Source: Patescibacteria group bacterium
GTDB lineage: Bacteria; Patescibacteriota; Microgenomatia; Levybacterales; GWA1-39-11
NCBI GenBank assembly: GCA_035549295.1
Contig: DASZRG010000033.1
Span: forward strand, 2,304 to 66,303
Length of the DNA: 64,000 nucleotides
Direction: 5' to 3'
Shown here: positions 5,680-52,260 of the stretch, one piece after another
How the letters are laid out: every line of letters begins with the position of its first letter
Position numbering within the stretch: the stretch's first letter is position 1
Position numbers and translations under genes: made by a program
Notes under the pieces: model-generated
The model's database searches: none
The model's input: the letters and a program-made list of their open reading frames with translations, nothing else
Told to the model about the DNA's origin: nothing

Positions 5680-6852
5680 ATGACAAACGAATCAGAACAA
5701 TTCGTACCTCGAGAAGTAACTGAAGTCAGGAAAAAAGACAAAATTACTGCAGAAAGCCTCCTCTCTGATAATAGATCCGATAAAGCAAGAACAAATATTA
5801 CCATCTGGCACGAAAATGCTGCTGCTGGCCTCCTAATTGAATCTGACACATGCGGCGATGCAAGGCAAGAGGTGCCAGATTTAACACGGGCTGTCATCGT
5901 GCAAAGTATTGGCACCGCCGGATCAAAAGAAGAATATCGTGGTCTTATAAATCACAGGTCAATTAAAGCTGCTGTAAATGTCGCCCATTTTGCAGGAAAT
6001 ACTGTTAGACCCGGAGTTGCACCAACTGGCTGCGGTGGGCTTGCCGCAAAAGAAGAAATGGTTGCCAAAGGACAACAAGGCAGCAGAGAAGGTATCGGTC
6101 ATTATGTTGAAAATGATATATATCACTCAGATGTCATTGTCCAAACATGTGTTTCGGCAATTCAAATGGCCGATATGACGGACAAACCTGTACTTGCCGC
6201 AGCTCAAGATCATCTTACTGGAATAATTTTACCTCTGATTGCTTTCTGGACGAAGGGCAATACCAGATATAGCATTCACAACAGATCACTAACCATGGAT
6301 GACATTCTCAGACCTGAGAAATATAGTCCTTCAAAAATCTATCGAGATGGACTTCCAATTATAGATGAGGAAGATTTGCCAGAAGTTTTCCATGAATATT
6401 TAATGGCAAACACAATTGAGACTCGCGACCTCCATGTTAAATATCCTGATTTTCGCGAGAGGCAAACCACACAAAATCCATCAACTGTTTTGTTATCAAC
6501 TGATATAAGACCCCCTCGACTTAGGCTACCTGAAAGTTTTGACGAGCCTGGCTCTGTTTTCAGACTTAGCTTACCAAGGAGAAAGTTTGCCAATGGGACT
6601 GACATTTCCGTGGAGATACCTGAAAAAGACCTTGTGAGTGTCGTAAACCAAACACAATACCCAATAGAGCACTTCAGCAATGTAGAAAATCTAATTATTG
6701 AAACCAGAGATTTTCAGGTTTCACTGGATCTCATGGGCCATTTTATGGCAAAGCCATGGATGAAAGACTGGCGAGAAAAAGGTGGGAAACAAGTAATTTT
6801 AGTTGAAACACAGGGAGGACGAATAAATAGAATTGCCGACGTTAAACTCTAA
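5680..6852 (+). CDS. hypothetical protein (390 aa) with a degenerate beta-CA-like N-terminal region
   Basis: Long ORF divergent from 5181..5585. It has CGDAR, then VIVQSIGTAG, then PTGCGG with the spacing of beta-CA motifs, but the His is replaced. The 3' end overlaps the dprA stop by 11 nt. Confidence 0.45.
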   Translation: MTNESEQFVPREVTEVRKKDKITAESLLSDNRSDKARTNITIWHENAAAGLLIESDTCGDARQEVPDLTRAVIVQSIGTAGSKEEYRGLINHRSIKAAVNVAHFAGNTVRPGVAPTGCGGLAAKEEMVAKGQQGSREGIGHYVENDIYHSDVIVQTCVSAIQMADMTDKPVLAAAQDHLTGIILPLIAFWTKGNTRYSIHNRSLTMDDILRPEKYSPSKIYRDGLPIIDEEDLPEVFHEYLMANTIETRDLHVKYPDFRERQTTQNPSTVLLSTDIRPPRLRLPESFDEPGSVFRLSLPRRKFANGTDISVEIPEKDLVSVVNQTQYPIEHFSNVENLIIETRDFQVSLDLMGHFMAKPWMKDWREKGGKQVILVETQGGRINRIADVKL

Positions 6853-8008
6853 ATTTACCTTCAGAACTTTTCAGTATTCCAGAAAGCTCCATTTTTGATA
6901 GCATTACGGAAAGTTTTGTATTTGGAATTTTGGTCTCGCGGGAAATCTCATCAATTGTCTTTTCCTCATCCTGAACACAATAAAAAATTTTCCGCTCATC
7001 TGCGTTCAGAGATTGCTTTGTCGCTTCGCTCCTCGCAATGACATAAATACCTGATTCGTGATTCTTGATTCTTAATTCGCTTAATATGTCGTCTACTGAA
7101 CTAACCAAAATCGCTCCTTGTTTTAATAATTTTAAACTTCCTTGACTCATTTGAGATGTAATCGGACCTGGTACTGCAAAAACTGTTTTGCCTTGTTTTA
7201 TTGCGAACTCGGCAGTAATAAGTGAACCACTCCCCTCTGCTGCTTCCGTGATAAGAACCGATGAACTTAGACCTGAAACAATTCGGTTGCGAGCTGGAAA
7301 CGAACCAACTGTTGCTGGCATACCTAGCGGATATTCTGAAATAATTAAGCCATTTTTATCGAGAATATTTTCATAAAGCTTTTCGTTTTCTCGAGGATAA
7401 GGACAATCAACTCCACATCCAAGAACAGCGATTGTTGAACCATTTGCATCAAGCGTCGCTTGATGAGCAACTCCATCTACTCCAAGCGCCATACCAGAGA
7501 CGATAATAAAACCATATGAGACGAGCTGTGAGACTAATGTTTCAGTAACTTGCCTACCGTAAGAAGTAATCTTGCGCGCACCGACGACGGCGATGACGGA
7601 AGAATTTGCCTGATCCTGGTCAAGCCAGGATGACAAATTCTGTCGAGATTCTGAAACAAGTTCAGAATGACAGGATAAAAGTAGTTCTTTGTTTCCTTTT
7701 ACGTAAAGGCCGATCGGTGGTGAATCGAGCTTCCTCAGACTTTCTGGATAATATTTATCTCCATAAGGGATAAAAGTCACTCGTGCTTTATTGAGCATTC
7801 CAAGATAATTTTGTATATCGAATGACTTCTTAAACTCGGCAAACTTTGCAAAATTACTTTTACCAATTCCCACCTCTTTATATTTTGCAAGAGTATCATT
7901 TTCCCATGCGTCGCGTGCTGTCCCAAACTTTTTCAATAGCTTTTGGAATCCCTTTGGACCAACACCAACCGAATTTGAAAAGGCAAGAATGAAATCTCTC
8001 TCAATCAT
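6842..8008 (-). CDS. dprA: DNA processing protein DprA (Smf)
   Basis: N-terminal SAM-like GVGPKGFQKLLKKFGTARDAW. Rossmann core VIAVVGARKITSYGRQ...IVSGMALGVDGVAHQATL...SFPARNRIVSGLS. C-terminal winged helix. Two short repeat elements are embedded in frame; see findings. Confidence 0.85.
   Translation of the reverse strand: MIERDFILAFSNSVGVGPKGFQKLLKKFGTARDAWENDTLAKYKEVGIGKSNFAKFAEFKKSFDIQNYLGMLNKARVTFIPYGDKYYPESLRKLDSPPIGLYVKGNKELLLSCHSELVSESRQNLSSWLDQDQANSSVIAVVGARKITSYGRQVTETLVSQLVSYGFIIVSGMALGVDGVAHQATLDANGSTIAVLGCGVDCPYPRENEKLYENILDKNGLIISEYPLGMPATVGSFPARNRIVSGLSSSVLITEAAEGSGSLITAEFAIKQGKTVFAVPGPITSQMSQGSLKLLKQGAILVSSVDDILSELRIKNHESGIYVIARSEATKQSLNADERKIFYCVQDEEKTIDEISRETKIPNTKLSVMLSKMELSGILKSSEGKFRV
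7018..7054. repeat. 37-bp repeat agagattgctttgtcgcttcgctcctcgcaatgacat inside the dprA CDS
   Basis: 36 of 37 nt identical to the intergenic copy at 11085..11121. Confidence 0.8.
7645..7671. repeat. palindromic hairpin repeat gagattctgaaacaagttcagaatgac inside the dprA CDS
   Basis: 26 of 27 nt identical to 8066..8092. Same family as 16378..16406, 33301..33360 and 39848..39907. Confidence 0.8.
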
Positions 8009-8065
8009 TTGCTTAAGAATATCACATTCTTGTCGTCCTGAGACTCGCTTCAGGACCTCATCGTT

Positions 8066-8092
8066 GAGATTCTGAAACTAGTTCAGAATGAC
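8066..8092. repeat. palindromic hairpin repeat gagattctgaaactagttcagaatgac in the dprA 5' region
   Basis: Stem attctgaaac/gttcagaat. Copy of 7645..7671. Confidence 0.8.
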
Positions 8093-8120
8093 GTCGTATT
8101 GGGTGTGGTAAAATTGATGT

Positions 8121-8939
8121 ATGAAAGTTAGGTTTCTTCATCTTAATATTTTTCAGGGGAAATATTTTACAAGAATAGTAAAGTTTATAAAGGAAAATGA
8201 CATAGATTTGCTTCATCTGCAGGAAGTGACAGGCGGAAAACTAAGCAAAGGCGGCGGATTCTCGTATGAGCATGTGCCTGAAGCAAACGAAATGATAATC
8301 GCCCAGGATACTGTAGGAATTGATAATCTCAAAAGGCTAAAAGAAGAATTTCCCTATGACTTTCGATTTGCAAAAACGTCAGGCTTTGTTGGGGACCCTA
8401 CAGCATATTACGGCAATGGAACTTTCTTCAGACCTGAGTTTAAATTGCTTGATGAAAAGATCATAGTATTACATCCGGAGAATGAAGAGACTCCTGAATT
8501 TAACAAATGGGAAGAATCAGGAAGATCAGCACTTTTTCTAAAATTTGAAATAGAAAATAAAACTTTTTGGAGCATCAATACTCATCTTGCATGGGGTAAC
8601 AATCCATACGATGCAGATTACAAAACCAAACAGGCACAACTTATCATCGACGAGATTGAAAAGCTAAAAGAACCATTTATCTTGAGTGGAGACTTTAATA
8701 TGGTTGCCGAGACTCAGGTTGTTGCAATGTTTGAAAAGTATGGGACCAACTGGACAAAAAAAGAAGGTATTACAAATACATTAAATGGGCATGTTCACGG
8801 TATAAAAAAACTATTTCCGCCGGGTCTTGCTGTCGACTATGTCTTCACCTCACCTGAAGTAAACGTAAAATCATATAGGCTAGTTGATGAAATTGACCTC
8901 TCTGACCACTATGGAATGCTTCTGGAGTTAGAGGTCTAG
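8121..8939 (+). CDS. endonuclease/exonuclease/phosphatase (EEP) family protein
   Basis: LLHLQEV, then SINTHLAWGN, then SGDFNM, then LSDHYGM. This is the typical EEP motif order. Confidence 0.7.
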   Translation: MKVRFLHLNIFQGKYFTRIVKFIKENDIDLLHLQEVTGGKLSKGGGFSYEHVPEANEMIIAQDTVGIDNLKRLKEEFPYDFRFAKTSGFVGDPTAYYGNGTFFRPEFKLLDEKIIVLHPENEETPEFNKWEESGRSALFLKFEIENKTFWSINTHLAWGNNPYDADYKTKQAQLIIDEIEKLKEPFILSGDFNMVAETQVVAMFEKYGTNWTKKEGITNTLNGHVHGIKKLFPPGLAVDYVFTSPEVNVKSYRLVDEIDLSDHYGMLLELEV

Positions 8940-10855: not shown

Positions 10856-10921
10856 CCTAACCTCACCCCAACCCTCTCCTGCTAGGAGAGGGAGATCAAG
10901 GTTTTAGGTTATTACTAAAAA
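10856..10921. repeat. composite repeat A: C-rich box, hairpin ccctctcc-tgcta-ggagaggg, then atcaaggttttag
   Basis: Related copies at 27790..27897 and 31775..31826. Confidence 0.7.
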
Positions 10922-10923
10922 CT

Positions 10924-11085
10924 ATGAATATTCCGCAGATACTTGAAACTCTAACTGATCTTATACTTCATTTCTCGTTTGAGAAGGCAAAAGATCAATC
11001 AAAGCTTGTAGCAGTTGTATTTGCTCTTGTCGCACTGGTGGTAATCTTCTTCGGATTCGTCTTTTCATTAATACCACAATTCTAA
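10924..11085 (+). CDS. small membrane protein (53 aa)
   Basis: ATG..TAA ORF, below the length cut-off of the provided track, with one C-terminal TM helix (LVAVVFALVALVVIFFGFVF). The 11085 repeat starts at its stop codon. Confidence 0.3.
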   Translation: MNIPQILETLTDLILHFSFEKAKDQSKLVAVVFALVALVVIFFGFVFSLIPQF

Positions 11086-11121
11086 GAGATTGCTTCGTCG
11101 CTTCGCTCCTCGCAATGACAT
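11085..11121. repeat. 37-bp repeat agagattgcttcgtcgcttcgctcctcgcaatgacat (intergenic copy)
   Basis: Matches 7018..7054 inside dprA. Confidence 0.8.
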
Positions 11122-11216: not shown

Positions 11217-11909
11217 GTGGGAGAAAATAAAATCGCGAGTAAAAGTTTTTATAATAGACTTCCAAAGTCTTTGACTACCGTAACGGGCTTTTCTAAATTT
11301 ATTGCACTTTGTCTTTTTATCCTCCTACCCTTCGCAGGATTTATGATAGGCGCGAGATATCAGGCAAAAATTGACTCAACTCTAATCAGTCAGACAACAC
11401 GTCAAACCTCAACCAGCAATAATTCAACGACTAGTAAATTACCAGATACGCAAAACTGGAAAACATATACAAATGCAAAATTTGGATTTTCGATAAAATA
11501 CCCTGCCGGTATTCCCGTCTACGTACCAGATACCCCAGTAATGCCGGACAATATTACAATACCACTGCCACAGCAAATCGCAACCGATGATACCTCAGAA
11601 AAAAATCTATTAATTATTATAAGAAAGTCAGATATGACTGCTGATCAAAACGTCCAAGAAAGAATCCATCAAGATAATCTATATAATACATCAGGAGGAA
11701 AATCTAATAGCAAAGTTTTAACTTTAGTAGGAAATAAATTCCAAATATTTATGCAAGATTTTCCAAGTTTAAAAGTTATAAAATTGGAATATTTTATTGA
11801 TAGAAATGGATATCTATATCAATTCAATATCAATACATCTTATCAAAACGAATCGCAAGTTGAAGATCTTGTAAATCAAATTCTTTCAACCTTCAAATTC
11901 ACAAAATAA
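11217..11909 (+). CDS. membrane-anchored protein with one PsbP-like module (cassette gene 1)
   Basis: GTG start. N-terminal TM helix. Module starts NWKTYTNAKFGFSIKYP and the protein ends ILSTFKFTK-stop. Confidence 0.6.
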   Translation: MGENKIASKSFYNRLPKSLTTVTGFSKFIALCLFILLPFAGFMIGARYQAKIDSTLISQTTRQTSTSNNSTTSKLPDTQNWKTYTNAKFGFSIKYPAGIPVYVPDTPVMPDNITIPLPQQIATDDTSEKNLLIIIRKSDMTADQNVQERIHQDNLYNTSGGKSNSKVLTLVGNKFQIFMQDFPSLKVIKLEYFIDRNGYLYQFNINTSYQNESQVEDLVNQILSTFKFTK

Positions 11910-11910
11910 T

Positions 11911-13374
11911 ATGGAAGCAAATAAAAATACTCAGACGGATCCTACTTTACCAGCGCAATCTGATCCGTTGCAATCAATTAATCCAGTTGCACCAAATAAA
12001 TACCTAAGAATATTTATCATCTTTTTGTGTTTTTTTGTTGGTATCCCACTTATTCTCATACCTATTATTATTGCAATTTTTGTTGTACCGCAACTAATGA
12101 GTCTATATAGTCATCTAGAAATTCATAATAAACCTAGCTACTTTCTAATTTATTCTGAACTATTTATTGCTGCGGCGCTTGGTGGACTAAATCCATTTTT
12201 TGGGATAAAGCTTATAAAGCACCCGACGAATCTAAAGAAAGCCGCAACTATCGCGATCCTAACCTTTTTCATTCAGGGTGTTGTGTTGGCATTAAGCTTA
12301 ATACCAATTCTTACTCCTATTTATTCACTGGTCAATCAAATCCAGGATGAGCCAACAAAAGAAAATACAAGTGTAAATCAAATAAAACCGCTCAAAACCT
12401 ATACGAATACAGAATACAATTATTCTCTAAGTTATCCTTCCAACTTGAATATTATTCCTCACGATTCCACAGCATCAAATACTTTCTCATTGACGAACAA
12501 ACCCAATCCTAAAAATGATCTGTATCCTGTTGATGAAGACAAAAAATATTTTGAGATTGAGGTGATGGTTAGTCCGGCCGATGGCCAGTCAATCAATGAC
12601 ATAGCAACAAGAATGGATAACTATAAAAATAGATCTGACTATGTAAGAACTCCCTACAAATTAGACGGAATAAATGGATATAAAGGGACAGATATTTCTG
12701 TTGACTCGTATACCATGGGGGTTGAAGTAATTAAAGACAATTACGATTATTTTATTGCTCTTAGAAAGTTTGATGACAAAAATACAGAGGGGATCAATGA
12801 TTTTAATCGAATTCTATCACTATTCAAATTTACAAACTTAACCGATGAACACCTCTGGAAAACTTATTCTAATGATGCATACGGATTCTCACTTCAGTAC
12901 CCGTCTAATTTGAAAATCGATCCTCCCGTATCAAGCGGGACCCTAGTTCCACCTTTTAACGGAAAGAGTCCGGAATTTAATAAAACGTTTATCGATACCG
13001 ATACCTACCACTACACATCGGATGACTTTATTCAAAATATTGATACTGGATATCGCTACAATGGATTCGTAATTTTTATATCCGATAATCCCGACAATGA
13101 AGATTTTTATACTTTTGCCAAAAATAACGCAACATCTATCGCATCTGCGGTTCAACCTTACACGCATAAAACTTACACAATAAATGTTACCAAAACCGAA
13201 ATAGGCGGAAGAGAAGCTTATTATTACAGTGGTTTTGAGCCACTAATATTCAACTTCTATATGGTCAGGCTTACCGATAGCAAATTCTTAATTCTTACGA
13301 ATGTGGAAGAAGCGAACGGACAATTTACTCAACAATTCCAAAAAATTCTCTCAACCATTAAATTTACAAACTAA
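11911..13374 (+). CDS. polytopic membrane protein with two PsbP-like modules (cassette gene 2)
   Basis: Four N-terminal TM helices. Modules begin LKTYTNTEYNYSLSYP and LWKTYSNDAYGFSLQYP. They end ILSLFKFTN (internal) and ILSTIKFTN-stop. Confidence 0.6.
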   Translation: MEANKNTQTDPTLPAQSDPLQSINPVAPNKYLRIFIIFLCFFVGIPLILIPIIIAIFVVPQLMSLYSHLEIHNKPSYFLIYSELFIAAALGGLNPFFGIKLIKHPTNLKKAATIAILTFFIQGVVLALSLIPILTPIYSLVNQIQDEPTKENTSVNQIKPLKTYTNTEYNYSLSYPSNLNIIPHDSTASNTFSLTNKPNPKNDLYPVDEDKKYFEIEVMVSPADGQSINDIATRMDNYKNRSDYVRTPYKLDGINGYKGTDISVDSYTMGVEVIKDNYDYFIALRKFDDKNTEGINDFNRILSLFKFTNLTDEHLWKTYSNDAYGFSLQYPSNLKIDPPVSSGTLVPPFNGKSPEFNKTFIDTDTYHYTSDDFIQNIDTGYRYNGFVIFISDNPDNEDFYTFAKNNATSIASAVQPYTHKTYTINVTKTEIGGREAYYYSGFEPLIFNFYMVRLTDSKFLILTNVEEANGQFTQQFQKILSTIKFTN

Positions 13375-13376
13375 AA

Positions 13377-15104
13377 ATGGACGACAACACACGAAACCCA
13401 GAACAGGACGATCAACCAGTGCAAGTCGCAAGAAAGCAAACAATAAATGACCTGAGATATCAAATCACCCAACTGCCATACATCTGGTACTTAAGTTTCA
13501 CTCTTTATGCGCTATCTCTAGGATCATTTTCTCCGTTTTTTTCCTTAATTTCGATTATTGGAATTGTATGTATATTTCTGTCGTTATTATCGTTTGCCTC
13601 ATTTGTATTTTTTATACCAAGATTTTTTAGAGTTTTTTATCTCTATGCCTTGGAAAACGGCTTCCCAGCCCTAGTCAAAGATATAAGAAGTCTCCAATTT
13701 GATAAACCTCAAAAAATTGCAATGGCTATTGTGTTTGTGTATTTCTTGATAATATTTGTAGTGTTAGTGCTGTTTGTTGCTTCAAATTTATTGCTGAACA
13801 TTACAATTCGACCTTCTATTATTCTCTCTATTGCTCGATTCCCAATATGGATCATCCTGTATTTAGATGCATATCTCCTGTTAAATTACAAAACAAATAT
13901 ACTTAAGAAATTTTCCATCCCTCAAACAACCTTAACTAAATCTATTTTCAACTCACTCGTTGGAATTTTAGTCCTAATACCCTTCTGCCTTACATCGCTA
14001 GTTGTATACTCTGCTTTTTACTCGAGAATTCACCCAGCAAAAGTTGCGTGCACGGCTGAAGCAAAGATTTGCCCTGACGGCACAACCGTTGGTCGTTCTG
14101 GTCCAACTTGCGAATTCACAAAATGCCCACCCCAAAAAACAACCGCAACAAATAACGATGCAGAAACTGCAAGATGGAAAACTTATACAAATACAAAAAT
14201 TGGCTACACAATAAAATATCCTCCTAGTTTCACTGAGCCAAATGTTCCCTGTGCTTCCTTTTGCCTTGCAAATGGCACCGAGGAGAATACTTTAATAAGT
14301 TTTTATGATAAAAACAGTAACGGCTACTCATTAACAGCATTTAAATCAATGAGCACTCTTGAACAGATAGTTAAAGAAAGGCAAACTGCTACAACATTCT
14401 CAGATATTGTTCCTCAATTTTTCCCAGACAAACCAATTAAATCTTTAAAAACAACCACCATAGATGGAATAACCACCTATTGGTATTCAACAGATCACAT
14501 CAATAAAGATGGTTCAAGTGGTGTCGACATTTACTTTTTCCAGAATGGTTACGCATTTATTTTCAGGGCTGGTGAATTTTCAAAAATAAATCAAAAACAA
14601 CTAGACGGAATGCTTTCAACATTCAAGTTCACAAACCAAAATCAAACTAGTGATAATTCAAATTGGAATGATGGGGTTATTGGTAATTTAACTTTTAAAT
14701 ATCCTTCACAATACCATGGAGGTTATGTATGCGGTAACAAGTCTGAATTTTTCATTGATACAGGTCCAATCCCTCAACAATGTCCATATGGCGATGATAC
14801 TCCAGCTTTTAATTTGGGCTTTACAAAAAATGAGACTTTGGCACAGGCAAAAAAAGATTTTCTAAGTAAAACAGGACGCATTGATCAAACAACTAAGGAT
14901 ATTGTGATAGACGGACGCGCGTCACTTGAAACAAAAGAAGTTTGGCCACCAGGACAAGATGTGGTAAATCACAATAATTGGGCTATATATATTGCAGATG
15001 GCCAGGATTTGTATGGTTTTTATTCTTTTGACCTACATATAAAAGCCGCAGACCAAGAAAAATATTTTGATCAAATTGCCTCAACCTTCAAATTCACGAA
15101 ATAA
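13377..15104 (+). CDS. polytopic membrane protein with a Cys-rich linker and two PsbP-like modules (cassette gene 3)
   Basis: Five to six TM helices. Linker CTAEAKICPDGTTVGRSGPTCEFTKCPP. Module 1 runs RWKTYTNTKIGYTIKYP to MLSTFKFTN. Module 2 ends IASTFKFTK-stop. Confidence 0.6.
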   Translation: MDDNTRNPEQDDQPVQVARKQTINDLRYQITQLPYIWYLSFTLYALSLGSFSPFFSLISIIGIVCIFLSLLSFASFVFFIPRFFRVFYLYALENGFPALVKDIRSLQFDKPQKIAMAIVFVYFLIIFVVLVLFVASNLLLNITIRPSIILSIARFPIWIILYLDAYLLLNYKTNILKKFSIPQTTLTKSIFNSLVGILVLIPFCLTSLVVYSAFYSRIHPAKVACTAEAKICPDGTTVGRSGPTCEFTKCPPQKTTATNNDAETARWKTYTNTKIGYTIKYPPSFTEPNVPCASFCLANGTEENTLISFYDKNSNGYSLTAFKSMSTLEQIVKERQTATTFSDIVPQFFPDKPIKSLKTTTIDGITTYWYSTDHINKDGSSGVDIYFFQNGYAFIFRAGEFSKINQKQLDGMLSTFKFTNQNQTSDNSNWNDGVIGNLTFKYPSQYHGGYVCGNKSEFFIDTGPIPQQCPYGDDTPAFNLGFTKNETLAQAKKDFLSKTGRIDQTTKDIVIDGRASLETKEVWPPGQDVVNHNNWAIYIADGQDLYGFYSFDLHIKAADQEKYFDQIASTFKFTK

Positions 15105-15105
15105 T

Positions 15106-16293
15106 ATGGAAGAAAGTAAAGTAGCTGATACAATCGAACCCGCCTTGAGTCCTACTCAAATAAATATTTCCGAAGCTGAAAAAAGAGAAACGAACAATAA
15201 AAAAAAGTTGTTTAAAAAGATCCTATTCGCGATACTTATTATTGTTGTTATTCTAGTAATTCATGCAATAGCGGATTGGCTTGGGGTATATACGCTATTT
15301 CAAAAACCCGAGAACACAGCGCTTCACGATGATATTTCGATGTGGCACAACTCACCTCAAGTGCCGTCATTCGAAACGCCAGCAAACTGGAAAACATATA
15401 CAAGTACTCCCGGGGCATACAAAATATCTTATCCACCTGACTACACAATAAATACTGGCCATTCGATGGGAGTTGATGGCGTCATCACTGTAGAATCTGA
15501 CAGTTACACAGAACTAATTTCAACAACCATACCTACCACAAATGAAAATATGAAAATCAGCATAGATTCGAAGCTAACAGATTACAAAACTATAGACGAT
15601 GTAGCTAGCAGCGACTGTGCCGATGCAAAAAAGGGAAGAGGGGAAGTTTATGAGCGACTCGACGGGGCGCCCTCATTGATATATCGAAATATTAACTGCG
15701 GCCCGCGATCCTCGACCAAAATTTACACCATTAATAGTGGCCGTGCCTATTCAATAACTGTTGAAAGTAATATAGAAGACGAAAAAATACGGCCGATCTA
15801 CAGCGACATACTTTTAACATTTAAATTTGCGCCTAGCAAAACTCTTGATACCTCAGATTGGAAAACATATACAAATGCAGAATTTGGATTCTCATTCAAA
15901 TATCCGAGCAAATTTACAATCAAAGAAGTGAGATATTATGATGCTGAAGGGAACTATAGAAATAAACTATACCCCGATGTTTATTACTTAATTTCGTTTT
16001 ATATAAATGAAGATGGAAAAGAAGGTTATTCAAGCTATACTTTCATCGCACAAGATTATGCTGAAAATACTATTTCGCAAGCATTTAAAGACATAAAAAC
16101 GATTCCAATTACAAAACCAAATGGTGTAGATGAGGCGTCCGCAACTAGTCACCAGCTGGACAGTGGCAACTTTGACACGATCTATAGAATTGGCAATAAA
16201 TACTACTATTTTGAACCTACTATTCAAGACAGTACAAGCCGTGAACACATATGGGATTATCCAATCCTGTCAACAATTAAATTCACAAAATAG
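15106..16293 (+). CDS. membrane-anchored protein with two PsbP-like modules (cassette gene 4)
   Basis: Start chosen at MEESK to mirror the MEANK start of gene 2. The gene junction aaattcacgaaataatatggaag duplicates the gene1/gene2 junction. Modules begin NWKTYTSTPGAYKISYP and DWKTYTNAEFGFSFKYP. The protein ends ILSTIKFTK-stop. Confidence 0.6.
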   Translation: MEESKVADTIEPALSPTQINISEAEKRETNNKKKLFKKILFAILIIVVILVIHAIADWLGVYTLFQKPENTALHDDISMWHNSPQVPSFETPANWKTYTSTPGAYKISYPPDYTINTGHSMGVDGVITVESDSYTELISTTIPTTNENMKISIDSKLTDYKTIDDVASSDCADAKKGRGEVYERLDGAPSLIYRNINCGPRSSTKIYTINSGRAYSITVESNIEDEKIRPIYSDILLTFKFAPSKTLDTSDWKTYTNAEFGFSFKYPSKFTIKEVRYYDAEGNYRNKLYPDVYYLISFYINEDGKEGYSSYTFIAQDYAENTISQAFKDIKTIPITKPNGVDEASATSHQLDSGNFDTIYRIGNKYYYFEPTIQDSTSREHIWDYPILSTIKFTK

Positions 16294-16377
16294 TATTTTT
16301 TAATGATTAGTCGGGAATTGTTAACAGGTATATCTCTATAATTTGCGTCATGCTGAATTTATTTCAGCATCTCGCTT

Positions 16378-16406
16378 TCGAGGTCCTGAAACAAGTTCAG
16401 GACGAC
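16378..16406. repeat. hairpin repeat tcgaggtcctgaaacaagttcaggacgac
   Basis: Stem gtcctgaa/ttcaggac. Adjacent second hairpin gctgaatttatttcagc at 16352..16368. Confidence 0.75.
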
Positions 16407-16415
16407 AATTCGATA

Positions 16416-25150: not shown

Positions 25151-25237
25151 ACCATGGCAGGGTTTTTACCATGGCAGGGTTTGACCTTGCCAAGATTAGC
25201 TTCAAAACTGGTGTTTGGCAGGGTTTGACCTTGCCAT
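25151..25237. repeat. REP doublet, upstream flank of the RAYT
   Basis: Partial copy accatggcagggttttt. Then the 70-bp unit at 25168..25237: accatggcagggtttgaccttgccaag, attagcttcaaaactggtgt, ttggcagggtttgaccttgcca. Each REP is an imperfect palindrome ggcaggg-tttga-ccttgcc. Confidence 0.85.
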
Positions 25238-25273
25238 ATTGACAGTAAATACTACTACTCGTATTGTAAGAGT

Positions 25274-25954
25274 GTGCCTGCAAAAAATAGAATTAAACCT
25301 TATATTGAAAATGGTTATTACCACATCTATAACCGCGGGGTAAACAAAAGACTTATTTTCAAAGACAAAAAGGACTGCATCGTTTTTCAAAGATTCCTAA
25401 AGCAATATCTATCTCCGAAAGATGATTTAAAAGAATTTATGAGACCGGGTGAGCGCTTGGATCGACTCATGAAGACGAATATGCATGGAGAGCTTGAGAT
25501 TCTGGCTTTTGCTCTAATGCCAAATCATTTCCATCTCTTAGTACGCCAAAAGAAACCAGAAGCTATCATAAAATTCATGAGACGTCTATGTACTTCCTAC
25601 TCTATGTATATAAATAGAAAATATCAACGAGTTGGACATTTATTCCAAGATGCATATAAAGGTGTTTTAGTTTTAGATGATCAATATCTGCTTCACTTAT
25701 CTAGATATATACATCTCAATCCAGATGCTCTAGACTCTGGCATGATAAATTTTAGAGAGTTCAATAGTTATCCATACTACTTGGGTGAACAATCAGCGAA
25801 ATGGGTTAACACAAAATACATTCTTAAGTATTTTAGAAATGAAAAAGTTGGTAACCACAATGGTTCATATGAAAATTTTATTGAAGACTATCGTAAATCC
25901 TCTACAAAAAACTTTCTTATTGGTTTAGCTCTTGATGATGACGACGTCGTTTGA
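25274..25954 (+). CDS. REP-associated tyrosine transposase (RAYT, IS200-like Y1 HUH transposase)
   Basis: HUH motif NHFHLLV. Catalytic Tyr region LSRYIHLNP. The size is that of the Y1 transposase fold. Flanked on both sides by identical REP doublets. GTG start. Confidence 0.8.
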   Translation: MPAKNRIKPYIENGYYHIYNRGVNKRLIFKDKKDCIVFQRFLKQYLSPKDDLKEFMRPGERLDRLMKTNMHGELEILAFALMPNHFHLLVRQKKPEAIIKFMRRLCTSYSMYINRKYQRVGHLFQDAYKGVLVLDDQYLLHLSRYIHLNPDALDSGMINFREFNSYPYYLGEQSAKWVNTKYILKYFRNEKVGNHNGSYENFIEDYRKSSTKNFLIGLALDDDDVV

Positions 25955-26023
25955 CCATGGCAGGGTTTGACCTTGCCAAGATTAGCTTCAAAACTGGTGT
26001 TTGGCAGGGTTTGACCTTGCCAG
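25954..26023. repeat. REP doublet, downstream flank of the RAYT
   Basis: Identical 70-bp unit to 25168..25237, beginning at the RAYT stop codon. Confidence 0.85.
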
Positions 26024-29900: not shown

Positions 29901-29959
29901 AGATGAGCATTTTATAACTTATAGGCTTATTTGGCAAGTTAATTATTCACTTTCGCAAA

Positions 29960-29985
29960 GATTCTTCGCGTACGCTCAGAATGAC
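29960..29985. repeat. gtcatt...gaatc family hairpin (divergent copy)
   Basis: gattcttcgcgtacgctcagaatgac. Shares its termini with the 7645 and 11085 families. Confidence 0.5.
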
Positions 29986-29996
29986 AGTCCCATTCT

Positions 29997-31784: not shown

Positions 31785-31826
31785 CCCAACCCTCTCTCAA
31801 AGAGAGAGGGAAGATAATGTTTTTAG
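31775..31826. repeat. composite repeat A copy
   Basis: tcaccccaaccctctctc-aa-agagagaggg then aagataatgtttttagcc. Confidence 0.65.
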
Positions 31827-31895
31827 CCTTGGCAGGGTTTGACCTTGCCAGAATTAGCTTCAAAATCAGAGTTTGGCAGGGTTTGACCTTGCCAA
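31827..31895. repeat. orphan REP doublet
   Basis: ccttggcagggtttgaccttgccag, aattagcttcaaaatcagag, tttggcagggtttgaccttgccaa. Same architecture as the RAYT flanks. Confidence 0.85.
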
Positions 31896-33213: not shown

Positions 33214-33300
33214 ATCTTTAGGTAAGAATATTATATTACAAACTTATTGTGAATGCATTAAATCAATTATGACTTTTGTAAGAAATTGCCCTCCTCATAC

Positions 33301-33360
33301 GTCATTCTGAACTCGTTTCAGAATCTCACACTCGAGGTCCTGAAATAAATTCAGGACGAC
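33301..33360. repeat. two adjacent hairpin repeats
   Basis: gtcattctgaactcgtttcagaatctc at 33301-33327 and ctcgaggtcctgaaataaattcaggacgac at 33331-33360. Confidence 0.75.
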
Positions 33361-33390
33361 AAACAAAAAACGATGTGAGCTTTGTTGCAC

Positions 33391-39813: not shown

Positions 39814-39847
39814 GACATCTGTCACCCTGGACTACGATCCGGGGTCT

Positions 39848-39907
39848 CGATGAGATCCTGAAACACATGAAAGCGTTGTTTCCAGTGCAAGGCAAGTTCA
39901 GGATGAC
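39848..39907. repeat. interrupted copy of the ctgaaacaagttcag hairpin repeat
   Basis: cgatgagatcctgaaac, then a ~28-nt insert, then caagttcaggatgac. Confidence 0.55.
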
Positions 39908-41947: not shown

Positions 41948-42126
41948 TGTTGAAAACTTAAAATGGTACCCTTAGGAGTCCCGATCTTATCGGGACGACG
42001 TAAGGTGACTTTCATAGACATGAATTTTACCATAAATCGTGCCTAACATAAAGAATTTTAAGCTTGAAAATTCAAAATACATTGATTGCGCCTTACCAAA
42101 CGAGTCTCATGTGATAAAATCCCCCT

Positions 42127-46355: not shown

Positions 46356-46371
46356 GTATGATCGATCATAC
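46356..46371. promoter_or_regulatory. perfect 16-bp palindrome gtatgatcgatcatac (copy 1)
   Basis: Lies 9 nt upstream of the YerC-like start. Confidence 0.6.
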
Positions 46372-46379
46372 TATCTCTA

Positions 46380-46793
46380 ATGGCAAGGGTCTCAAAGTAC
46401 AGAGTTGAATACAAAACATATATCCAGATTTTGGATACTTTGGATTTGGTTCTGGGAAAAATGAAAAAAGACGAAGTCCGCTCTTTTCTGTTTTCGCTCC
46501 TTGGGAGAAATGAACGAATAATGATTGCAAAAAGATTTATGGCAATCTTACTTCTGCAGAGAGGCGTAAGCGTATCAGAAATTGCGAAAAGACTTAAACT
46601 CACTAGGCAAACGATTTACAGATTGGATGAAATAAAAGAATTAAAGAGTCATGGATTTCTTCTCGCTCTAAAGAAAGTGAATCAAGATGAACTTAACCGT
46701 GGAATAAAAAAGATTCTATTGGATGTTGCTAAAGAAATGGGATCAAGTCGGAAAGGTATTGGATGGCAAAACGTCCTAAAGGAACATGTATGA
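46380..46793 (+). CDS. TrpR-like YerC/YecD family DNA-binding protein
   Basis: LLGRNERIMIAKRFMAILLLQRGVSVSEIAKRLKLTRQTIYRL matches the YerC/YecD TrpR-like HTH. Confidence 0.55.
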   Translation: MARVSKYRVEYKTYIQILDTLDLVLGKMKKDEVRSFLFSLLGRNERIMIAKRFMAILLLQRGVSVSEIAKRLKLTRQTIYRLDEIKELKSHGFLLALKKVNQDELNRGIKKILLDVAKEMGSSRKGIGWQNVLKEHV

Positions 46794-46808
46794 TCGATCA
46801 TACATGTT
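46783..46808. promoter_or_regulatory. 26-bp perfect palindrome aacatgtatgatcgatcatacatgtt (copy 2)
   Basis: Contains the 16-mer. Overlaps the YerC-like stop codon. Confidence 0.6.
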
Positions 46809-46874
46809 CTTGGAAGTGATTATAAAGGAGCTTAAACAAGCTACCAATAATAAGTAACTGCATGATTCTTATCG

Positions 46875-47426
46875 CTACCAACCTTGTTCTTTATATTTCC
46901 TAACTATTTGGGGGAATTTTTTGGAAAAAACCTTAATTTTGTCTGTCATAACGAATAGGTCTTTTATCTGATATAAGTCAGGATTTTTCATATATTTCTT
47001 GATCCACGAGATCGCGTCTTCTATATCTTCAGCTATATAGTCTGTTGAAATAAATAAAAATGGATTTATAAAATCTTTCACAATTACTCCCTGAAATACT
47101 ATATTCGGCTTTCTGTGATGTGAATTTTTGGGAATGATGGCAATAACAGGTTTTTTAAATTGTTTTGCCATGAGTATTTCTTGCGCAGTCCCAGCACCAA
47201 TTTTTTCTGCCGCGTGAACAATTGCTATATCTGTGTGTTTTATAAGGTATAAATCATGTCCAACCACCGTTTCAGGTCCTTCTTTATCATTTATCAAGTC
47301 GCCATGAAGAAAATTTGCATTAGGAATTGCTTTACTGATCTTTCCGACATAATCAGTCTTCCAATCAATCCAATTTTTCCTAACCTCATCTCCCTTGGGA
47401 ATACTTCCAAGAAGAATTATTTTCAT
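46875..47426 (-). CDS. hypothetical protein (183 aa), possibly with a nucleoside 2-deoxyribosyltransferase-like fold
   Basis: ORF only. The N-terminal MKIILLGS... is Rossmann-like. The family call is weak. Confidence 0.4.
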   Translation of the reverse strand: MKIILLGSIPKGDEVRKNWIDWKTDYVGKISKAIPNANFLHGDLINDKEGPETVVGHDLYLIKHTDIAIVHAAEKIGAGTAQEILMAKQFKKPVIAIIPKNSHHRKPNIVFQGVIVKDFINPFLFISTDYIAEDIEDAISWIKKYMKNPDLYQIKDLFVMTDKIKVFSKKFPQIVRKYKEQGW

Positions 47427-47448
47427 ATTTTTGAATTATAGCAAAGAG

Positions 47449-47470
47449 GAAAAGTATGATCGATCATACT
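47449..47470. promoter_or_regulatory. 22-bp perfect palindrome aaagtatgatcgatcatacttt (copy 3)
   Basis: In the promoter region of the 46875..47426 minus-strand gene. Confidence 0.6.
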
Positions 47471-47540
47471 TTTTCTTAGGAAGGATTGCATTGAAGCTTA
47501 AAATCTTGCAGCTTGGCGGAGATTGCGGGAAAGTATTATG

Positions 47541-51897: not shown

Positions 51898-52260
51898 GTG
51901 CTATACTGTCTCACTATGGCAAATAAAACTGTAAATACTCCTGCCACCATTGTTGACGTTAACAAGGCTTTGAAGAGTTCTGAAAAGGTTTTGAGAACTG
52001 AAATATTAAGAGTTGAGGAACGTGTTGAAAGAGTTGAGGAACGCGTTGAAAGAGTTGAGGAACGCGTTGAAAGAGTTGAGATAAAGCTTACGTCAATGGA
52101 CGCAAAACTTGATAAGATTTCTAATCAATTGGATGGTTTTGTAGGAAGAGTTGATGATTTATCAAATGATAACGAAATTGGCACTGATCATATCCATGAA
52201 CTACGCAAAACCACAAAGGACCACGAGAAAAGAATTGCAAAACTTGAATCTGTAAACTAA
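51898..52260 (+). CDS. coiled-coil protein with an RVEERVE heptad tandem
   Basis: A 21-bp unit gttgaggaacgcgttgaaaga is repeated at 52011..52080 more than three times. The probable start is MANKTV. Confidence 0.4.
   Translation: MLYCLTMANKTVNTPATIVDVNKALKSSEKVLRTEILRVEERVERVEERVERVEERVERVEIKLTSMDAKLDKISNQLDGFVGRVDDLSNDNEIGTDHIHELRKTTKDHEKRIAKLESVN

Follow-up and report, generated by a model that had tools for sequence, protein, structure and literature searches.

In-frame palindromic repeats of CGTC type in dprA of a Levybacteria genome, and recurrent colonization of the same DprA loop in related lineages

In-frame palindromic repeats in housekeeping genes have been known since the work on Rickettsia. 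There, Ogata et al. reportedly described the in-frame Rickettsia palindromic element RPE-1 in 2000. Palindromes lying in frame within genes are also covered by a survey of CGTC-tagged repetitive extragenic palindromes, or REPs (Di Nocera, De Gregorio and Rocco, BMC Genomics 2013, PMC3733652), which recognizes the families CGTC-1 and CGTC-2, reports them from five phyla and places RPE-4 and RPE-6 of Rickettsia in the same superfamily. In that survey the elements have an unpaired terminal CGTC tag (often TGTC, also CCTC), a stem of 8-9 bp with complementary A/T at its first two positions, a loop of 4-5 nt and an unpaired 3-nt tail with the consensus CCA; their dimers are mainly of the 'HH' kind, defined as having the tags outside. 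They are mainly intergenic, with some intragenic copies, notably in replication and repair genes, and have no associated transposase. Here we describe elements of this kind in dprA, the gene for DNA-processing protein A, within a window of 64 kb (the whole analysed stretch of contig DASZRG010000033.1) from a metagenome-assembled genome (MAG) of Levybacteria, in the candidate phyla radiation (CPR) or Patescibacteria; the comparison covers the window and 81 further loci, cited by L numbers. We consider it probable that the segments found in dprA are dispersed CGTC-type REP copies tolerated in frame in loops of the protein, and we show that one of these loops has been colonized repeatedly in relatives. 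The gene and its repeat-derived segments are as follows, with R1 denoting a covariance model built from 37 copies of the repeat.

6842..8008, minus strand: dprA (DNA-processing protein A), intact open reading frame (ORF) of 388 aa, from the ORF list.
7610..7675, minus strand: lineage-specific insertion of 22 codons, residues 112-133 (SCHSELVSESRQNLSSWLDQDQ), comprising two head-to-tail hairpin units, from the orthologue alignments.
7645..7672, minus strand: CGTC-type REP unit 1 in dprA (tGTCATTCTGAACTTGTTTCAGAATCTC), tag on the sense strand, read as CHSELVSES; pattern match and R1.
7610..7635, minus strand: degenerate REP unit 2 in dprA (tGTCATCCTGGCTTGACCAGGATCAG); hairpin scan, R1 17.6 bits, E = 0.05, outside the training set.
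7009..7043, minus strand: type-B REP (tGTCATTGCGAGGAGCGAAGCGACAAAGCAATCTC) in the linker from the Rossmann to the winged-helix domain, coding VIARSEATKQS; pattern match, R1 weak, E = 1.2.
11086..11120, minus strand: intergenic type-B REP, the sole other type-B copy in the window; pattern match, R1 weak, E = 1.2.

The product of the gene matches the Pfam domains DNA_processg_A (E = 6.8e-72) and DprA_WH, and an identical protein from a Patescibacteria MAG is annotated as DprA at NCBI; an exact-protein lookup for this DprA on other contigs gave no match. Its best relatives belong to Candidatus Levybacteria, the closest (L082) sharing 64-66% of its residues, with none nearer in the protein collection. 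Every residue invariant across 27 DprA orthologues is kept. The AlphaFold (AF2) model has a mean predicted local distance difference test (pLDDT) score of 87.4, and its confidence is low (pLDDT <50) only at residues 118-134 and 316-328, the two stretches that correspond to the repeat-coded segments. The protein is most likely functional and carries two 'passenger' peptides.

The first segment contains a 27-nt element, type A (GAGATTCTGAAACAAGTTCAGAATGAC), which matches perfectly at 7645-7671 and, with a single mismatch, at 8066-8092 and on the opposite strand at 33301-33327, and which found matches in none of 100 shuffled sequences. Its translation, (S)CHSELVSES(R), occupies residues 113-121, exactly the in-frame position and peptide of the original prediction, and the ORF indeed stays open through this and the second element. 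Unit 1 has the top R1 score in the window (47.8 bits, E = 3e-9, for a copy that belongs to the R1 training set). A further copy overlooked at first, the degenerate unit 2, starts 10 nt downstream of element A, so that dprA holds both of the elements originally recognized and a third; the stem subfamily of unit 2 is also present as CCGGGCTTGACCCGG in L017, L019 and L058. In alignments of 27 orthologues and of 82 Levybacteria DprA sequences most orthologues have 5 variable residues separating the conserved motifs KGNKxLL and IAVVGARK, as against 27 in the window protein, and DprA of S. pneumoniae (3UQZ) has only 3 at this place. The alignments thereby show residues 112-133 as a lineage-specific insertion, and orthologues with conserved non-palindromic residues there, which were looked for, were not found. 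Comparison with 3UQZ places the site within the extended Rossmann fold, just ahead of the first core strand (the IAVVGARK turn), and not in a linker before the Rossmann domain as had been supposed.

The second segment is coded by a 37-nt element, type B, whose true position is 7008-7044, 10 nt away from the 7018-7054 first given for it. Its other copy, at 11085-11121, is intergenic as predicted and differs at the Y position alone. The translation, VIARSEATKQSL, spans residues 323-334 between the Rossmann and winged-helix domains, in agreement with the earlier placement and peptide. Read on the dprA sense strand, types A and B share a (T/C)GTCAT head and an AATCTC tail, and by these shared ends they are two subfamilies of one superfamily, not the two different elements that they had been taken for. 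Type B has an outer stem of 5 bp and an interior of at least 12 nt, outside the 4-5-nt loop rule. The interior contains GCGAAGC, a sequence that forms a very stable DNA mini-hairpin, which offers a lead. At the same site and in the equal reading frame the closest relative (L082) has GTCATTGCGAGCGCAGCGAAGCAATCTC, and between these two counterparts the head and tail are identical, while the genes diverge by 37% at the nucleotide level. That element B is an insertion, as its family membership suggests, is likely but not proven; the earlier proposal of tolerated in-frame insertions accordingly stands for 7610-7675 (absent in most orthologues, in a low-confidence loop and of a family dispersed intergenically) and is retained as likely for 7009-7043.

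A scan requiring the shared head and tail to enclose a perfect inner stem yielded 69 elements in the window and the 81 loci, against 1-6 in shuffled sequence. The remaining window copies are these.

8031..8093, no single strand: REP dimer in inverted arrangement, outward tags, units 6 nt apart, 24-85 nt upstream of the ATG of dprA; hairpin scan and R1.
16346..16407, no single strand: REP dimer in inverted arrangement, outward tags, units 6 nt apart, flanked by convergent genes; R1 E = 4e-8 and 2e-8.
29958..29986, minus strand: variant REP (GTCATTCTGAGCGTACGCGAAGAATCTT), type-B-like, intergenic; R1 E = 0.02, outside the training set.
33300..33361, no single strand: REP dimer in inverted arrangement, outward tags, units 6 nt apart, intergenic between divergent genes; R1 E = 3e-8 and 5e-8.
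39820..39907, no single strand: REP dimer in inverted arrangement, outward tags, unit 2 with a 29-nt loop insertion; R1 for 39820-39848 E = 0.07, outside the training set.
41975..42000, minus strand: weak REP-like hairpin (GTCGTCCCGATAAGATCGGGACTCC), intergenic, doubtful; R1 E = 0.7.

In total the window holds about 13 REP copies in 64 kb, three in dprA and the others intergenic. The view that both families are scattered through the window is borne out for type A and related copies, about 10 more of which are present, and fails for type B, which has only two copies besides the variant at 29958-29986. Of the 69 copies, 53 have T and 14 have C immediately before GTC, and GTC itself is invariant in the 37 aligned copies; in the window the tag is CGTC at 8093, 16346 and 33300 and TGTC at 7672. 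Among the 57 short copies, 47 have an 8-bp stem, 40 a 5-nt loop and 8 a 4-nt loop. AT occupies positions 4-5 in 65 of the 69, the pairs A5-T25 and T6-A24 are almost invariant, and 5 of the 8 stem pairs are changed on both sides; the 100% pairing figure is circular, the copies having been gathered under a rule that demands pairing. The 3-nt tail always begins with C (CTC 26, CTT 11, CTA 11, CCA 10). Neighbouring copies have their tags outside in 16 cases, are direct in 3 and never have their tags inside. Around 42 copies no target-site duplication of 3 nt or more was detected, and those of 2 nt (4 of the 42) equal the permutation mean; a search of the same flanks for a target motif revealed a preference for T at -1 and -2 and nothing else.

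These features place the dprA elements, at the level of sequence and predicted hairpin, in the CGTC-tagged REP superfamily of PMC3733652. They share with its members the tag, the 8-bp stem opening with A-T and T-A, the 4-5-nt loop, the 3-nt tail and the HH dimers, as well as a mostly intergenic location with some copies in DNA-metabolism genes and the absence of a transposase gene flanked by them. They differ in their host, Levybacteria belonging to a phylum not listed in that survey, in having CTC, CTT or CTA tails instead of CCA, in having TGTC more commonly than CGTC, in the longer interior of type B (GAGGAGCGAAGCGACGA) as opposed to a 4-5-nt loop, and in showing phylum-wide recurrent hot spots, of which the survey has no case apart from one in recB. 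Its supplements make no mention of dprA, smf or topoisomerase, and DprA and TopA are not among the targets named in the paper. At the gathering threshold no Rfam family matched the whole window, and nothing meaningful matched 6800-8300 at E <= 10. A BLAST search of plasmids gave Treponema saccharophilum as the only clear second host, extending the type to Spirochaetota; its plasmid pTS1 (L081, 1430-1660) has a five-hairpin array of CGTC type between convergent genes. With the Rickettsia palindromic elements the present ones have in common that they are in-frame palindromes in conserved genes of a small-genome bacterium, leave the ORF open and place their peptide away from the protein core. The units here measure 25-36 nt, whereas RPE-1 is said to measure 100-150 bp. 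The link to RPE-4 and RPE-6 rests on the statement in PMC3733652.

The repeats might alternatively be ancestral coding sequence with derived intergenic copies, or assembly artefacts, a possibility to which we give hardly any credence: the first segment is missing from orthologues, the same hairpin type occurs on the Treponema plasmid and, according to PMC3733652, in five phyla, and in-frame copies recur with intact ORFs in dozens of independent assemblies. The copies upstream of the gene had suggested a different role. The one-mismatch copy of element A at 8066-8092 is confirmed, and together with 8031-8059 it makes up an inverted dimer, placed in the 112 nt between divergent genes (R1 E = 5e-8 for 8066-8093 on the minus strand and E = 1.8e-4 for 8031-8059 on the plus strand, the latter outside the training set). 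The original prediction offered, as its second explanation, a pairing of the copy in the 5' untranslated region (5'-UTR) with the one in the coding sequence (CDS) that would regulate dprA through its RNA. The near-identical palindromes lie on one strand and cross-pairing is chemically possible, but when a transcript running from 8120 to 7580 is folded, both the minimum-free-energy and the centroid structures have the two upstream units paired to each other in a single long hairpin and each CDS unit folded on itself. Furthermore, the closest relative has no upstream copy, the copies at the corresponding DprA loop of other lineages differ in family and orientation, and the upstream region has a single weak promoter-like match, no more than in shuffles, a transcription start upstream of the dimer not being established. 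We consider such regulation very improbable.

The 82 DprA sequences contain 32 internal insertions of at least 5 aa, and 25 of these (in 25 of the 82 orthologues) fall at one loop, the one that carries the first segment in the window; beyond it there are 2 a few residues upstream, 1 elsewhere in the fold and 6 small ones in the linker. The hot-spot inserts include single, dimeric or trimeric CGTC-type REPs, pointing either way, and at least 3 other palindromic families, such as the CCCTC-type hairpin of L082. This second hairpin family (accccaaCCCTCTCC...GGAGAGGG) is also intergenic in the window, at 10872-10892 and 31790-31810, and in L082 it occupies 1630-1715, coding PSPQPSPLGGGS...SLSPRERARERG. 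In 1.27 Mb of Levybacteria DNA, 8 of the 46 R1 matches lie inside this single loop. On a neighbour-joining tree of DprA the insertion states are scattered and sister taxa differ, which implies many independent gains, losses or replacements. The same DprA loop has thus been colonized repeatedly in relatives.

When long ORFs of the loci were clustered into families and subjected to the same insertion analysis, the outcome was as follows.

TopA, 43 sequences: two hot spots (13 insertions at one, 18 at the other), over half of the insertions containing hairpins of at least 6 bp.
MreB, 39 sequences: one hot spot, 9 insertions.
Wzy_C-type protein, 40 sequences: several variable loops.
PBP2, 63 sequences: almost no insertions.
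MreC, 63 sequences: almost no insertions.
Deformylase, formyltransferase and L10, 21-32 sequences: almost no insertions.

In many Levybacteria topA is a neighbour of dprA, and two sites in it recurrently hold single or dimeric REPs in frame (L022 13167-13238; L034 11930-11962 and 12587-12622; L048 11839-11866; L068 12618-12656; L049 7147-7209). In-frame REPs were also seen in MreB (L058 5856-5923), in O-antigen-ligase-like (Wzy_C) proteins (L034 1199-1225 and L038 1692-1760) and in methionyl-tRNA formyltransferase, Fmt (L039 19180-19207). Literature searches retrieved no relevant paper on palindromic or REP elements in CPR or Patescibacteria, and none matched the encoded peptide strings; as far as could be found, recurrent colonization of DprA, TopA and MreB loops across Levybacteria is undescribed.

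The reading frames of the repeat bear on which copies persist. A CTGAA-type unit, as read from its letters, has TGA in one forward and two reverse frames, which leaves VILNLFQNL and xHSELVSES open in the forward direction and EILKQVQND alone in the reverse. All reverse copies within genes use that one open frame, [EK]IL[KN]QVQ[ND]D, as is expected from selection against stop codons. We propose that REPs have dispersed over the genome both singly and as dimers with outward tags, and that a copy falling in a gene would survive only if its length kept the frame, the frame were read without stops and the loop tolerated extra residues, which would probably be disordered and harmless there. In DprA two loops would have been occupied in this way, the turn before the first Rossmann strand (IAVVGARK) and the hypervariable linker that leads to the winged helix at the C terminus. 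The elements themselves are presumably mobile and may be moved, in the form of hairpins of single-stranded DNA, by a trans-acting enzyme of HUH/Y1 type, which is consistent with the absence of target-site duplications. Repeated insertion combined with selection could give rise to the hot spot, in-gene copies being perhaps shielded from the deletions that clear intergenic DNA of small genomes, and new copies perhaps being drawn to those already resident.

Several observations weigh against so simple an account of tolerated copies. A nucleotide-level empty site for the dprA insertion was not obtained, the closest relative being 64-66% identical in amino acids, and the case for insertion of element B is its family membership, because the linker that holds it, hypervariable as it is, does not exceed the length seen in orthologues. 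At the hot spot the net gain from a reverse-oriented copy is only about 3 residues, the conserved xIL codons being provided by its GAGATTCTG end, and a simple event of inserting 27 nt does not describe such copies. By a rough estimate the occupancy of the hot spot is more than 100-fold the intergenic density, which uniform insertion followed by selection cannot explain without extra assumptions. L017 and L019 share 44 identical nucleotides around the hairpin against a gene-wide divergence of 25%, and such excess conservation of shared in-gene copies could reflect constraint on the hairpin itself. These puzzles of net length, conservation and density could be accounted for by targeting to the site or to resident copies, by replacement among family members through their conserved ends, or by longer survival within genes, since most deletions there would destroy an essential gene.

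The first of these options amounts to site-directed insertion, in which the element or its enzyme recognizes a DNA feature of the dprA stretch and of the two topA sites, or homes to resident copies; it refines the reading of tolerated insertions and is not an alternative to it. We see it as unlikely overall, yet as a possibility of some substance. The 25 of 82 lineages hit at one loop stand against 6 small insertions in a linker that is equally disordered in the model, and the share of R1 matches within that loop points the same way. In addition, in sister taxa a given position is filled by subfamilies that differ but share their ends (L040 versus L065, and the window versus L082), units cluster and dimerize everywhere, and different REPs lie near one recB site in two Xanthomonas species (PMC3733652). 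Conversely, unoccupied orthologues have no conserved nucleotide motif beyond a codon-level N-x-x-L-L, the flanks of the 42 copies show only the T preference at -1 and -2, forward copies begin at a different codon from reverse ones, and the presence of unrelated hairpin families in the same loop is more easily explained by tolerance. The stronger proposition, that the DprA loop and the two TopA sites are true integration hot spots at which CGTC-type REPs were repeatedly inserted, exchanged and lost, with hairpins perhaps selected at the nucleotide level, strikes us as rather doubtful.

The conservation of shared in-gene copies above the gene-wide nucleotide level also raises the question of whether the hairpins are kept for a function at the DNA or RNA level in dprA and topA, for which a pause in translation from one folding unit to the next, regulated decay of the mRNA, or a structure sensitive to supercoiling or single-stranded DNA are candidates. 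Roles as RNA elements and as targets of gyrase have been proposed for REPs, which show enrichment in DNA-metabolism genes (PMC3733652), and the mRNA region folds better than its shuffles (z = -4.5). However, palindromes trivially cause a low z-score, recent replacement by family members also predicts extra conservation, about 70% of orthologues have no insertion, sister taxa differ, and orientation, family and number of units are all variable. We accordingly judge selection for such a function to be improbable, and retain tolerated insertion of dispersed REP copies as the preferred explanation.

A candidate enzyme was sought in the window itself. A Pfam scan of its 65 long ORFs revealed one Y1 transposase (25274-25954), for which the top NCBIfam model is the REP-associated tyrosine transposase (RAYT), below the model cut-off, and which has the motifs HFHLL and RYIHLNP. 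It is flanked on both sides (25164-26022) by a 99%-identical 73-nt repeat with two TGGCAGGGTTTGACCTTGCCA hairpins per copy, of which a solo copy lies at 31822-31894; the gene and its flanks form a REPtron-like unit whose hairpins belong to a different family from those in dprA. Its homologues in L073 (9303-9887, directly upstream of dprA) and L034 (4361-4855) are each flanked by their own distinct palindromes. The RAYT-like gene was rejected as the cognate transposase of the dprA elements on the ground that the hairpins are not shared, which agrees with the report of CGTC REPs without a dedicated transposase in PMC3733652; PMC6006769 has nothing on an enzyme for CGTC REPs. The elements thus resemble the RAYT-mobilized GTAG REPs and their REPINs (REP doublets forming hairpins) in being short, imperfect, dispersed palindromes with an unpaired 5' tag and inverted dimers foldable as one long hairpin, and in that the window encodes a RAYT-like Y1 transposase; they differ in that the tag is (T/C)GTC in all copies, not GT[AG]G, and in that the RAYT-like gene is not flanked by the same REP within the 64 kb seen. 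MITEs (miniature inverted-repeat transposable elements), non-autonomous derivatives of DDE transposons that in some cases lie in frame within genes, are likewise small, non-coding, dispersed and at times intragenic; unlike these, the present elements have no target-site duplication, and their unit is a single 27-nt hairpin instead of terminal inverted repeats around a core.

The window contains further repeats. Four tandem paralogous genes at 11217-16293 have recurring N- and C-terminal motifs (repeat families D1, D2, D5 and D9), and one of the four gives a weak match to Pfam PsbP_2. The palindrome GTATGATCGATCATAC, with stems of 10-12 bp, occurs three times upstream of small genes at 46356-47476 and may be an operator-like site. 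A tandem 21-nt repeat (AAGAGTTGAGGAACGYGTTGA) is present in at least 3 copies at 52008-52080, within the ORF at 51898-52260.

The repeats described here create recurrent 'junk' peptides (CHSELVSES, EILKQVQND, VIARSEATKQS) that lengthen conserved proteins of CPR bacteria, and recognizing them avoids misreading such segments as new domains or regulatory RNAs. They extend the CGTC class of REPs to Patescibacteria and make DprA and TopA two further DNA-metabolism genes in which such REPs occur, with a single protein loop repeatedly colonized across a phylum. CGTC REPs being without a known transposase, a site with many independent events offers a practical entry to that question. If the DprA and TopA sites were true integration hot spots, they would provide a natural series of independent insertions from which the mechanism of mobilization and the target rule could be derived, and the bias of intragenic REPs towards DNA-metabolism genes would have a mechanistic cause, not one of tolerance.

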